Source of the DNA: Nanobdellota archaeon | GTDB lineage: Archaea > Nanobdellota > Nanobdellia > Pacearchaeales > JAHJTO01 | Direction: 5' to 3' | Length of the DNA: 64,000 bases | Assembly: GCA_042572295.1 (NCBI GenBank) | Contig: JBHPFA010000002.1 | Coordinates: 180-64,179 of the forward strand | Part shown: positions 60,752-64,000 of the stretch, piece by piece | Layout: each line of letters begins with the position of its first letter | Position numbering within the stretch: the stretch's first letter is position 1 | Made by a program: the position numbers and the translations under genes | Notes under the pieces: generated by a model | The model's database searches: none | What the model was told of the DNA's origin: nothing | The model's input: the letters and a program-made list of their open reading frames with translations, nothing else

Positions 60752-61936
60752 ATGAAAGATCAAGTAAAAACAATTCTCGAAGGCATTGAATCAACATTTC
60801 TTTCTGATGAAAAATATAATGGGAAAAACCCAAAAGAAGATCTAAAATTAGTCAATTATCTGAAGTCTCAATATTACATGGGAACTGGCGATGCTTGGGA
60901 GATCATTAAGCTAGTACGTAATCCTTTAACTTATTCAAATGAGATAAATAAAAAATTGGGAGATGTCAAATACAAAGCAACACCTGAAAGAGTTGTTGGA
61001 GTGTGTAAGTCAGCCCATAAATTAGAAAGAATAGTTAATGAGTATCTAGATATTAGAGGATTCGTAGATGGCCTAAATGACAATTTCTGGACAGATAAAA
61101 TAGGCTTGACTATGTCGACTTTCTTTTGGAGTACTGAAAACCCTGGATTTGAAAAAGAAATAAATGAACTAGAAGTTCCATTTAAGAACCCTGAAGACCC
61201 TCTTAATTTTTCATATAAAGAGACTAAAGAGGCTATAACAAATATTTTTTTGGAAGCAAATAAGAAAGGAATTGATAATGACCAAGATTTTGGAAAATTC
61301 GTTGGAGATTATATCTCTAAAAAAAATGAGGAAGAAGATATAAGCCATTTAGGTAATAGAAGCGCCATGATATGGGAAATTTATAAAAGATTTTTGAATA
61401 CTGCAATCAAGGAATTTGATTGGGAAGGAGGATTATCAAAAGCGGAATATTCTAGTGAGGTAAAACACATCAGTAAAGCATTCTTACCTTCAGAGAAGAT
61501 TATAAAGAATGTTCTTAGAGATCAAGTAAGTGATAGAATTATGTATAGGAGACAAGCATTAGAGGGTTATTTAACAAATCCTGCTTTTGTGGAAGGTCCA
61601 GTTGAAAGCTATGATAATTTAATGGATTATTTTAAGGAAATGATTGCAGTTCATGGGAAAAATATTGAAGATACTAAGATAAAACTTGGCTCTAAAAACA
61701 TTGGAGATAAGGAGATTAGAGAATATGAAGAAGAATTTGAAAGAAAGGGGATAAAATGGCTTGATTTGTCCTATAACCAAACTTTCCTTAATGAAGATAT
61801 TCCTTACTATGTCACAAAAATAGCTTACGTTAAAGAAGAAAAAGAAAAATTACAAGTCTACAAATTCTTATATAAGAACTGTAATTCTGAGAAAAAGTTT
61901 GTCAAGAGATTATTGAATATTGAAGAAGAAAAATAG
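60752..61936 (+). CDS. Hypothetical protein (394 aa, acidic, no family recognised)
   Basis: A long ORF with the local codon bias and no TM segments. I recognise no motif. Confidence 0.5.
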   Translation: MKDQVKTILEGIESTFLSDEKYNGKNPKEDLKLVNYLKSQYYMGTGDAWEIIKLVRNPLTYSNEINKKLGDVKYKATPERVVGVCKSAHKLERIVNEYLDIRGFVDGLNDNFWTDKIGLTMSTFFWSTENPGFEKEINELEVPFKNPEDPLNFSYKETKEAITNIFLEANKKGIDNDQDFGKFVGDYISKKNEEEDISHLGNRSAMIWEIYKRFLNTAIKEFDWEGGLSKAEYSSEVKHISKAFLPSEKIIKNVLRDQVSDRIMYRRQALEGYLTNPAFVEGPVESYDNLMDYFKEMIAVHGKNIEDTKIKLGSKNIGDKEIREYEEEFERKGIKWLDLSYNQTFLNEDIPYYVTKIAYVKEEKEKLQVYKFLYKNCNSEKKFVKRLLNIEEEK

Positions 61937-61977: not shown

Positions 61978-62090
61978 TGAGGAAGATCCTAATAAGCTGG
62001 AAACACCCGTTCCCATCTGAACACGGAAGTTAAGCAGCTTGTGTTATGGAGTGTACTGGCTTCGGTCGGGAAATCTATAAGTCATCCTCA
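61978..62090 (+). rRNA. 5S ribosomal RNA (ends approximate)
   Basis: The conserved core AAACACCCGTTCCCATCTGAACACGGAAGTTAAGC and GTACTGGCTTCGGTCGGGAA is present. The terminal helix pairs TGAGGA (61978-61983) with TCCTCA (62085-62090). The stretch is GC-richer than its surroundings. Confidence 0.85.
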
Positions 62091-62147: not shown

Positions 62148-62948
62148 ATGGGTGTGTTAAGTAGTTTTGGATTATGGATAAGTAGGTCTGCATTGATCTT
62201 CTTTCTAATTGCTGCAATCTTTACTGCGGGGCTTGTAGACTTAACAAAGAGTGATACAGTTAATTCTGCATTTGAATCGTTGGTTGAAAGTGCTAGTGGT
62301 GGACAATTAAATTTAGAGGAATTAGCTAAAGATATACATCCAGAAGTTGTTAATTTATGTGAAGAAGGAAATAAAGAGACAGTTTCAATACCTGCAGAGG
62401 AAGGGATAAATCTAGAATTTAATTGTGATGATGTTAAATCTAAAGGAGTGGCTGAAGTTAAGAGTGTTCTTGTAAATGAAGTAATCTCTTCAAATATTCC
62501 AGAATCCTCAGAAGATCTTTGTCAAGAAGATAACTGTCTTGGTAATTTTGTAAAGACAATAATTAGCAGTCCTCTTCAAGGAATGTCTATGATTTTGGAT
62601 GAGGATTTTAATAAAGCTGTATCCAAACTTCCTTTAATTCTTTTTATTATTGCGATCCTTGGTGCAATTGGATTAGTTGTATTCTCTTCTGGAATTAGTG
62701 GTAGAATAATGGGTCTCGGATATCCACTTGCAGTAGCTGGTTTGCCTTATTTCGGATTAAGATTGCTAGGTCCTAAAGTTGGAGAAAATTTATCTGGCAA
62801 TGCAGCTTTAATAATTCAGGAGATTCTAGCGAGTGTATCTCTTAGATTCATGATAGTATTGATATTGGGAATTGCCCTATTAGTCATAGGGCTTATCTTG
62901 AAATTCTCATTAGAAGCTGGAAAGAAGAAAGTCGGTGCAAAGAAATAA
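62148..62948 (+). CDS. Hypothetical membrane protein (N-terminal TM, Cys-containing extracytoplasmic domain, 3 C-terminal TM)
   Basis: Hydrophobic segments FGLWISRSALIFFLIAAIFTAGLV, LPLILFIIAILGAIGLVVF, YPLAVAGLPYFGL and FMIVLILGIALLVIGLIL. No family recognised. Confidence 0.5.
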   Translation: MGVLSSFGLWISRSALIFFLIAAIFTAGLVDLTKSDTVNSAFESLVESASGGQLNLEELAKDIHPEVVNLCEEGNKETVSIPAEEGINLEFNCDDVKSKGVAEVKSVLVNEVISSNIPESSEDLCQEDNCLGNFVKTIISSPLQGMSMILDEDFNKAVSKLPLILFIIAILGAIGLVVFSSGISGRIMGLGYPLAVAGLPYFGLRLLGPKVGENLSGNAALIIQEILASVSLRFMIVLILGIALLVIGLILKFSLEAGKKKVGAKK

Positions 62949-63809
62949 TTATTTATTCTTGATGATATAATAAATTTCATTAGAGGTATCTAATTTTGTA
63001 AATTTTAGATTGAGTCTTTTTAACATTAATTCAAACCAAGTTCTTTGTTTGAATTTCATTTCTTTTTGAGATATTGTTTTTGTGGCAAAGCTTGTTATAA
63101 TCCATTTACTTTTTATTGAGGTTAGGAGGGCTTCTACGAGCCTATATTTTCTTTTCTTCGAAAATTCTATAGACTCTATTAACTTAAACATAAAACAAAC
63201 ATCTGTATCCGATAATTTCTTCAATTTATCAAGAGAATCTTCTTCACTTAAATCTAGGATGCTTGCTTTTCCATTTAACCCTTTACTTTTCATTAAATTA
63301 AAATAATCATTTAAGAAGTCTACATCTTCTTTGTTAATCTCAGTTGCAGTATATTGTATTTTCTTAAGGTTCATCCAAGGAAAGGATAAGGGATTTAGTC
63401 CAGAACTTAAATCAAGTATACTTTTAGGATTGGAAGTTATTAAAAATATATCTTTGTATAAACTTTCATAATGTGAGAGTCTTTCTCTAGTCGATATATT
63501 TGTTTTTAAGATTTTTTTGTATACTTCTAAATCTTCAGATTCTTTAAGCTCTTGTAAAAACTTTTCTCTCAAGACTTTCTTTCCTTTTTGAAAAACCCCA
63601 TGAGATTTATGCAGGCCTTTTCTCACTTCTTTGACTGCTTGTTTAAAGAGAGTAGATCTAATCCCTTTTTCTTCTAGTTGTTTTTGGACTTTGGGATTTC
63701 TTTTAAAGAAAAGATTCATTTCCCTCTTAGCAATACTATCTGCAAGTCCTGCAAACTCTTTCTTCTTTTTTATAGATTCTAAAAAGAGTTTTCTCTTATG
63801 TTCTTCCAT
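62949..63809 (-). CDS. FmrO-family (ArmA/RmtB-like) 16S rRNA methyltransferase homologue
   Basis: The protein is colinear with ArmA/RmtB. NISTRERLSHYESLYKDIF matches HASTKERLAELDTLYDFIF. ILDLSSGLNPLSF matches VLDIACGLNPLAL. DVCFMFKLIESIE matches DLALIFKLLPLLE. WIITSFATKTISQKEMKFKQRTWFE matches MAVSFPTRSLGGRGKGMEANYAAWFE. The C-terminal NEIYYIIKNK matches TELIYLIKKNG. Confidence 0.7.
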   Translation of the reverse strand: MEEHKRKLFLESIKKKKEFAGLADSIAKREMNLFFKRNPKVQKQLEEKGIRSTLFKQAVKEVRKGLHKSHGVFQKGKKVLREKFLQELKESEDLEVYKKILKTNISTRERLSHYESLYKDIFLITSNPKSILDLSSGLNPLSFPWMNLKKIQYTATEINKEDVDFLNDYFNLMKSKGLNGKASILDLSEEDSLDKLKKLSDTDVCFMFKLIESIEFSKKRKYRLVEALLTSIKSKWIITSFATKTISQKEMKFKQRTWFELMLKRLNLKFTKLDTSNEIYYIIKNK

Positions 63810-63833
63810 CTAAAAATAAAGAATTTGAAGTTT

Positions 63834-64000
63834 TTAAGCTGATGGCCTCATAGGGCCTGTTGCAATATCAAGAGGAGATTTGATTTTCTTTAATTCCTCT
63901 GTTGAAACATGAGTATATATCTGAGTTGTTGAAAGACTACTGTGTCCAAGCAATTCTTGGATAAAACGAATGTCTGTTCCAGCTTCTAAAAGATGTGTAG
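63834..64000 (-). CDS. Tyrosine recombinase/integrase (XerA/XerC/D-like), C-terminal 55 codons only; rest lies beyond the window
   Basis: My reverse-strand translation: [54 protein letters not shown]-stop. It contains the LLGH...Y catalytic box. Not in the ORF track. Confidence 0.8.

Follow-up and report, generated by a model that had tools for sequence, protein, structure and literature searches.

What does an Arm/FmrO-family 16S rRNA methyltransferase do in an archaeon whose 16S rRNA lacks the base that this family methylates? The question arises from a minus-strand gene at 62949..63809 of a 64,000-nucleotide (nt) stretch of contig JBHPFA010000002.1 (the window), which belongs to a tiny-genome DPANN archaeon (G000; 856 kb in 14 contigs, 33% guanine plus cytosine [GC], 77% complete). 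The only known function of the Arm/Rmt/FmrO family is resistance, which defeats nearly all clinically used 4,6-deoxystreptamine aminoglycosides. An initial annotation, made from sequence alone, had recognized the family and offered three roles: protection of ribosomes from aminoglycosides, a native modification of helix 44 (h44), or cargo of an integrative element.

That the Arm family has an archaeal branch is already known through NEQ545 of Nanoarchaeum equitans, which has been in the literature since 2010. What is new is that this organism, like other lineages of the class, retains the enzyme although its rRNA does not have the canonical substrate base, G1405. This combination is a specific, testable indication of a different target in the archaeal branch, and it bears on how target specificity evolves in a clinically important enzyme family. 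Throughout an archaeal class, an Arm/FmrO enzyme is kept as a core gene, and natural G1405A/C1496U variants that retain it provide a ready-made genetic test, which points to a selected function that has no need of the canonical base.

An enzyme kept without its canonical base

The open reading frame (ORF) at 62949..63809 (−) starts with ATG, encodes 286 amino acids (aa) and contains every string quoted in the initial annotation (STRERLSHYESLYKDIF, ILDLSSGLNPLSF, FMFKLIESIE, ITSFATKTISQKEMKFKQRTWFE, and NEIYYIIKNK); the open frame was confirmed, with a 100% match in the organism's own genome. The protein is a true FmrO/Arm/Rmt-family member by sequence and by fold, as first proposed. The Pfam model FmrO (PF07091), suggested at that stage as a check, matches at E 2.6e-17 (63.5 bits against a gathering cutoff of 27), and the generic NCBIfam Rmt model NF000466 at E 5.8e-38 over model positions 21–254 of 254. 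The NF000466 score, 130.7 bits, does not reach the equivalog cutoff of 250 and so does not assign the protein to Enzyme Commission class EC 2.1.1.179. A Protein Data Bank (PDB) sequence search returned Sgm (E 1e-18) and RmtC (E 2e-14), colinear across residues 54–284.

Structure prediction is concordant. An AlphaFold model built from 60 homologues (predicted local distance difference test 93.4; predicted template-modeling [TM] score 0.89) has the two-domain architecture of the family, a helical N1/N2 region followed by a class I Rossmann methyltransferase domain. In a Foldseek search of the PDB, the top 16 matches were all N7-methylguanosine-1405 (m7G1405) methyltransferases (Sgm, RmtC, RmtB, RmtF, and ArmA); Sgm was best (E 2e-15; TM 0.76/0.83), and unrelated methyltransferases appeared only from E 3e-7, leaving a clear gap. 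We accordingly annotate the gene as encoding an FmrO/Arm/Rmt-family S-adenosylmethionine (SAM)-dependent rRNA methyltransferase of the archaeal Nanoarchaeia branch.

The substrate side gave the opposite answer. Numbering was checked on annotated Escherichia coli 16S rRNA, in which G1405 lies within CCCGUCAC and C1496 within AAGUCGUAAC. The single 16S gene of this organism lies outside the window (contig C4:1574-3022; locus L003 2820-2930). Its h44 reads GCACACAC-U-GCCC-A-UCAAGCC on the 5′ strand (1405 context GCACACACUGCCC-A-UCAAG) and AAGU-U-GUCACAAGG on the 3′ strand (1496 context AAGU-U-GUCAC). Inspection of the G1405 context, also proposed in the initial annotation, was therefore negative: The pair is A1405–U1496, a fully compensated replacement of G1405–C1496. 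Because the organism's own 16S rRNA carries A1405, m7G1405 cannot be the product here.

Sequencing error is ruled out because 1405 and 1496 covary perfectly: In 16S 3′ ends aligned from 30 genomes in the order (that of this organism among them), the pair is always G/C or A/U, and eight further A-type (A1405) genomes fit the same rule. The four genomes of the organism's family (G000–G003; three genera), one of which is 94% complete in nine contigs, all combine A1405–U1496 with an intact enzyme; none has the G1405–C1496 pair that EC 2.1.1.179 requires. The combination recurs elsewhere. Exact pattern matching typed base 1405 in 156 genomes of the order and 276 of the class in total. In the order, G250 and G367, from a family other than that of G000–G003, are A-type and keep the enzyme; the congeners of G367 are G-type (G1405). 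In other orders of the class, all five A-type genomes (G425, G443, G540, G455, and G466) have an intact enzyme together with U1496. A1405 and the enzyme thus coexist in 11 genomes from about seven independent lineages, and all catalytic residues are intact in the 11 proteins.

Across the 276 typed genomes, enzyme presence was not associated with G1405: The gene was present in 11 and absent from 9 A-type genomes, and present in 179 and absent from 77 G-type genomes (Fisher P = 0.21, uncorrected for phylogeny). A negative association with A1405 seen within the order alone (P = 0.0017, likewise uncorrected) was rejected on this combined count, the five A-type genomes elsewhere all carrying the enzyme.

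Several other departures from the E. coli sequence surround this pair. The organism's own 16S has U1400, A1409–U1491, and C1499, and the decoding center of these DPANN 16S rRNAs is unusual in general, with U1400 in many genomes, A1405–U1496 in about 20 of those typed, C1499 throughout, and A1409–U1491. In G005, G012, G039, G025, and G250, GACAC stands where others have GUCAC, placing A1498 at a position that is elsewhere universally U.

The enzyme itself is old and common in these archaea. With PF07091 alone, 22 of 61 searched genomes of the order gave a match. A profile built from the clade was more sensitive: It detected the gene in 323 of 401 genomes of the order (76 of the 86 of high quality) and, in a phylum-wide sample of 251 high-quality genomes, in 154, which belong to one class (Nanoarchaeia) and are spread over dozens of families. 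The relatives are labeled Pacearchaeota, Woesearchaeota, Nanoarchaeota, or Nanoarchaeia. Among GTDB species representatives, 294 loci encode relatives, the best 80 of which mostly bear Woese-, Pace-, or Nanoarchaeota labels; among 1.84 billion cluster representatives, 1275 had a match with E ≤ 1e-3, including 166 with E ≤ 1e-30. The 0.5-Mb single-contig genome that we take, as a guess, to be N. equitans matches the clade profile at only 4e-25, and NEQ545 is presumably strongly diverged. Near-core in the order and widespread in the class, the gene is not an accessory resistance gene, nor is it mobile cargo; it is an old, vertically inherited core gene of an archaeal class. Of the roles first suggested, a native h44 modification fits this distribution best.

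Two groups of records within this set deserve mention. Single in-frame TGA codons interrupt otherwise full-length orthologues at G492:C27:35090-35935 and G523:C6:38020-38523, which could be pseudogenes, sequencing errors, or cases of recoding. Many third-party-annotation bins titled "uncultured Methanosarcinales archaeon" (L049, L055, L061, L063, and others) carry the Nanoarchaeia-type gene at 34–44% identity to the present one and look like mislabeled DPANN bins.

Active-site residues and known relatives

We mapped functional residues through a HMMER alignment to RmtC, taking their roles from the cryogenic electron microscopy study of RmtC on the 30S subunit (PMC10288597), and judged conservation on four archaeal alignments of 16 to 60 sequences each. 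The N-terminal helical domain (approximately aa 1–125; 63435..63809, −) is all-helical in the model and corresponds to the N1/N2 30S-docking subdomains of RmtC. The RmtC docking residues K43, K47, R50, and H54 align with K56, K60, R63, and H67 of this domain, which also bears the S106-T-R-E-R segment and F73, the equivalent of the RmtC aromatic Y60 that stacks between SAM and the flipped base. S106, E109, and R110 are each invariant in three of the four alignments and differ in a single sequence in the remaining one.

The C-terminal Rossmann-fold catalytic domain (approximately aa 126–286; 62952..63434, −) alternates beta and alpha elements in the model and aligns with the catalytic domains of Sgm, RmtC, and ArmA. 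The SAM contacts of RmtC, S107, D134, and D160, have equivalents in S106, D133, and E157, giving a full SAM-binding set. K204 of RmtC, a universally conserved Lys that touches N7 of the flipped G1405 (PMC10288597), corresponds to K209 (codon 63183..63185, −), which is invariant in all archaeal alignments, including the proteins of the 11 A1405 genomes; with F73, it supplies the base-positioning residues. RmtC K236, S239, and R241 align with K244, S247, and K249; the equivalent of the RmtC 237–246 loop appears about two residues shorter (SxK-x-M) in the archaeal protein. D133, G137, N139, K209, S240, F241, and E278 are invariant in all four alignments.

The protein thus has the full fold of the m7G1405 enzymes together with their SAM-binding residues, basic N-terminal docking residues, and invariant active-site Lys, and by this comparison it looks like an active enzyme that shares the RmtC mode of docking and base flipping.

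Motif I, the SAM loop, reads D133-L-S-S-G137-L-N139-P140 (63390..63413, −), with D133, G137, and N139 invariant in sets of 60 and of 28 archaeal homologues; G137 aligns with A138 of RmtC, and Sgm has Gly in the same column. The initial annotation had singled out DLSSG as a deviation from the family. The loop is indeed there, but it is no anomaly: Sgm has DLACG, and archaeal homologues have DLSAG, DISAG, DLASG, DLACG, or DLSCG. Two candidate adaptations to A1405 were likewise considered and rejected. A Gly-to-Ser/Ala change in motif I at first separated 6 of 11 A-type from 0 of 22 G-type proteins, the latter taken from one family; the contrast disappeared once G-type relatives belonging to the same families as the A-type proteins were added (G432 DISAG, G569 DLSAG, G600 DIASG, G639 DLASG, and others), and the S135 variant also occurs in relatives with G1405 rRNA. 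This variation is a phylogenetic effect. The K236 equivalent is non-basic in three of six A-type and 5 of 22 G-type proteins, which gives no signal of coevolution with base 1405.

Among characterized relatives, Sgm of Micromonospora zionensis (PDB 3LCU/3LCV) and the producer enzymes GrmA, KgmB, and FmrO are 16S rRNA (guanine1405-N7)-methyltransferases. Sgm is the best match in both sequence (colinear over residues 57–284) and structure, has the same two-domain architecture, and shares the STxER, D-L-x-x-G-L-N-P, (L/F)xK, and SF-x-T-K motifs. Identity to this group is only about 22–28%, however, and the archaeal gene is a chromosomal core gene rather than a self-resistance gene of an antibiotic cluster; with A1405 in the rRNA, the Sgm reaction is impossible here. 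RmtC, RmtB, RmtF, and ArmA (PDB 6PQB, 8GHU, 3FRH, 6PI9, and 3FZG) are acquired, plasmid-borne m7G1405 methyltransferases of Gram-negative bacteria. The archaeal protein has the fold of RmtC and equivalents of its docking, stacking, SAM-binding, and base-contacting residues, but differs from the Rmt/ArmA group in identity (24–27% by tblastn), in its subcutoff NF000466 score, and in having neither a mobile element nor a G1405 substrate.

Two further relatives come from ultrasmall organisms. Husain et al. (2010, PMC2896518) presented NEQ545, with its conserved catalytic motifs, as the "first archaeal ortholog" of the Arm family, and Podar et al. (2013, PMC3655853) listed it, with its Nst1 orthologue, as a Nanoarchaeota signature gene. 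NEQ545 is the N. equitans orthologue of the present protein and comes from the same archaeal class; the two organisms differ in that N. equitans has G1405 and this one A1405. The grm-like genes of candidate phyla radiation (CPR)/Patescibacteria are also Arm/FmrO-like and occur in ultrasmall, reduced, probably fermentative symbionts; one of them conferred no aminoglycoside resistance when expressed in E. coli (preprint 10.64898/2026.07.13.738296). These genes differ in being bacterial and sporadic and are read in that study as related to restriction-modification; the rRNA target base was not analyzed there. We found no description of the Pace-/Woesearchaeota clade in the literature on FmrO in archaea or on DPANN aminoglycoside methyltransferases.

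Candidate targets and roles

The enzyme is kept under obvious purifying selection while the canonical base is missing; therefore, either A1405 is accepted or the target lies elsewhere. Published modification data for N. equitans favor the second option. Methylation to m7G1405 prevents cleavage by RNase T1 (PMC2760815), and matrix-assisted laser desorption/ionization mass spectrometry of N. equitans rRNA recovered the T1 fragment UC(Am)(Am)Gp, positions 1406–1410 (PMC5389701). G1405 was therefore cut in that organism, which means that it carries no stoichiometric N7 methylation. The same study did not recover C1402-containing fragments, described as "displaced ... by nucleobase modification," and its RiboMeth-seq data suggested a modified G1401 (PMC5389701). 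An orthologue carrier with a T1-cleavable G1405 and signs of G1401 modification makes G1401 the leading candidate. Every 16S sequence in our alignments has G1401, but this base is conserved universally in any case.

We therefore consider that the protein is probably a native decoding-center methyltransferase whose function is independent of G1405, with G1401 as a candidate target. On this view it belongs to the archaeal (Nanoarchaeia/DPANN) branch of the Arm/FmrO family, is inherited vertically, and has a housekeeping role in methylating small-subunit rRNA; it would dock, as RmtC does, on the h44/h45/h24/h27 surface of late or mature 30S subunits. A decoding-center purine would then be flipped into the active site. 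The selected function of the branch would not depend on a guanine at 1405, and the most likely target would be another invariant decoding-center nucleotide near the top of h44, with G1401 foremost.

Four points weigh against this reading. The residues that position G1405 in RmtC are all conserved, as expected if 1405 were still the target. Within the order, the enzyme is rarer in A-type (6 of 15) than in G-type genomes (113 of 141; P = 0.0017, with no phylogenetic correction), a depletion that would fit G1405 as the target in most lineages. The proposal of G1401 as a candidate leans on indirect data from one distant relative, in which NEQ545 would be only a putative maker of the modification. 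Finally, the 16S and methyltransferase genes lie on different contigs of a metagenome-assembled genome; the four genomes of the family agree, however.

A wider claim can be made more tentatively. The archaeal branch may have another job than its bacterial counterparts—native decoding-center methylation away from G1405, as at G1401, or formation of N7-methyladenosine at 1405 (m7A1405)—and we give this generalization slightly less than an even chance. If true, it would explain why many lineages have swapped G1405–C1496 for A–U yet kept the enzyme, and the m7G1405 enzymes met in the clinic would have branched off from an ancient housekeeping family and changed their target. The ribosomes concerned have an unusual decoding center overall, in which U1400, A1405–U1496, and C1499 coincide with the lack of KsgA/Dim1.

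The alternative that survives best keeps position 1405 as the target: a purine-1405 N7 methyltransferase that constitutively forms m7G1405 in G-type relatives and m7A1405, or acts poorly, in A1405 lineages. The conserved equivalents of the G1405-contacting and -positioning residues (F73, K209, and K244) and of the docking residues are what this proposal predicts; adenine also has an N7, and the order-level depletion described above points the same way. The class-wide count shows no such association, though, and the A-type proteins lack any active-site adaptation, in the K236 equivalent and motif I alike. N7 of adenine is a much weaker nucleophile than that of guanine, and N7-methyladenosine is, to our knowledge, not a known modification of rRNA. 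Together with the T1 cleavage at G1405 in N. equitans, these considerations leave a 1405-directed enzyme rather unlikely, though worth keeping in view.

An enzyme acting mainly as a ribosome-assembly factor is improbable. Its binding to h44/h45 would serve as a late 30S checkpoint in the manner of KsgA/Dim1, with methyl transfer secondary or dispensable. This genome has no full-length KsgA/Dim1 (PF00398), nor do 58 of the 61 genomes searched in the order, whereas all 14 controls have it; N. equitans lacks it as well (PMC5389701), and KsgA binds at a site that overlaps with the surface used in RmtC-type docking (PMC10288597). Against this stands the invariance of SAM-binding and catalytic residues over very deep divergence, which argues for selection on catalysis itself, and three families (f3, f4, and f8) have neither KsgA nor this enzyme, so that the one does not simply replace the other. 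A complementary distribution of the two was examined and rejected: With or without the enzyme, almost all genomes of the order lack KsgA. One of the three full-length KsgA/Dim1 copies in the order is riddled with stop codons. The h45 GGAA loop with A1518/A1519 is retained despite the loss, and the absence known from Nanoarchaeum thus extends to Pacearchaeota-type genomes.

A resistance determinant that shields ribosomes from the 4,6-deoxystreptamine aminoglycosides of neighbors, as the initial annotation had envisaged, is very improbable. It draws on homology to Sgm, Rmt, and ArmA, whose sole known role is resistance, but the organism's own A1405–U1496 pair leaves it poorly supported. The gene is near-core and anciently inherited, and its product scores below the NCBIfam resistance-family cutoff. 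The CPR grm-like gene left minimal inhibitory concentrations in E. coli unchanged, and the same preprint (10.64898/2026.07.13.738296) argues that aminoglycosides enter cells only where there is respiration, a process absent from reduced fermenters of this kind.

Gene neighborhood

The recombinase that had suggested a mobile element is real. An upstream open frame at 63834..63998, on the same strand and 24 nt away, matches the C terminus of Phage_integrase (PF00589, E 2e-11), which bears out the reported adjacency; the gene (63834..64000 in the window, −) extends past the window end and encodes 276 aa in full. The full ORF scores 261 bits on the NCBIfam model recomb_XerA_Arch, and because this exceeds the archaeal XerA equivalog cutoff of 220, the recombinase is the housekeeping chromosome-dimer resolvase XerA.

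XerA is a chance neighbor of the methyltransferase gene, outside any conserved unit. No XerA homologue was found in any of 80 related loci (tblastn, 3 kb of flank on each side) or beside the gene in G002 and G003. In G002, of the same family, the gene is surrounded by unrelated genes, and in G003 it lies between diphthine-synthase-like and aminoacyl-tRNA synthetase genes (named by eye from translations). The congener G001 holds it near rpS9, in the same relative place as here. Clustering of neighbors across the 80 loci, again named by eye, returned signal-peptidase-like (29 of 80), EF-1alpha (15 of 80), and TFS-like zinc-ribbon genes (14 of 80), with no integrase among the clusters. GC content is flat throughout the methyltransferase region, without compositional anomaly. 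Transport of the methyltransferase gene as integrative-element cargo by this tyrosine recombinase, an idea prompted by the same-strand gene only 24 nt away, can be given almost no credence in view of the XerA assignment, the 0 of 80 linkage, the shared site by rpS9 in G001, the near-core distribution, and the flat GC, flanking repeats not having been searched.

The 24-nt spacer that follows the XerA stop codon and precedes the methyltransferase gene (63810..63833, −) is T-rich. Because its TTTATTTTTA run lies merely 3–12 nt ahead of the methyltransferase ATG, the two genes may be cotranscribed.

The remaining surroundings are sparsely annotated. Beyond XerA, past the window end (L002 4966-11300), short ORFs that could not be assigned stand in a row with winged-helix-like genes; the methyltransferase gene is on the other side of XerA and is not part of this row. 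On the downstream side, neither Pfam nor NCBIfam gave a match for two plus-strand ORFs, 60752-61936 (a 394-aa acidic soluble protein) and 62148-62948 (a 266-aa membrane protein), and the stop codon of the latter abuts the convergent methyltransferase stop codon with zero gap. Alone between these two ORFs is a 5S rRNA gene (61979-62090, +), which is unlinked to the 16S gene on its different contig.

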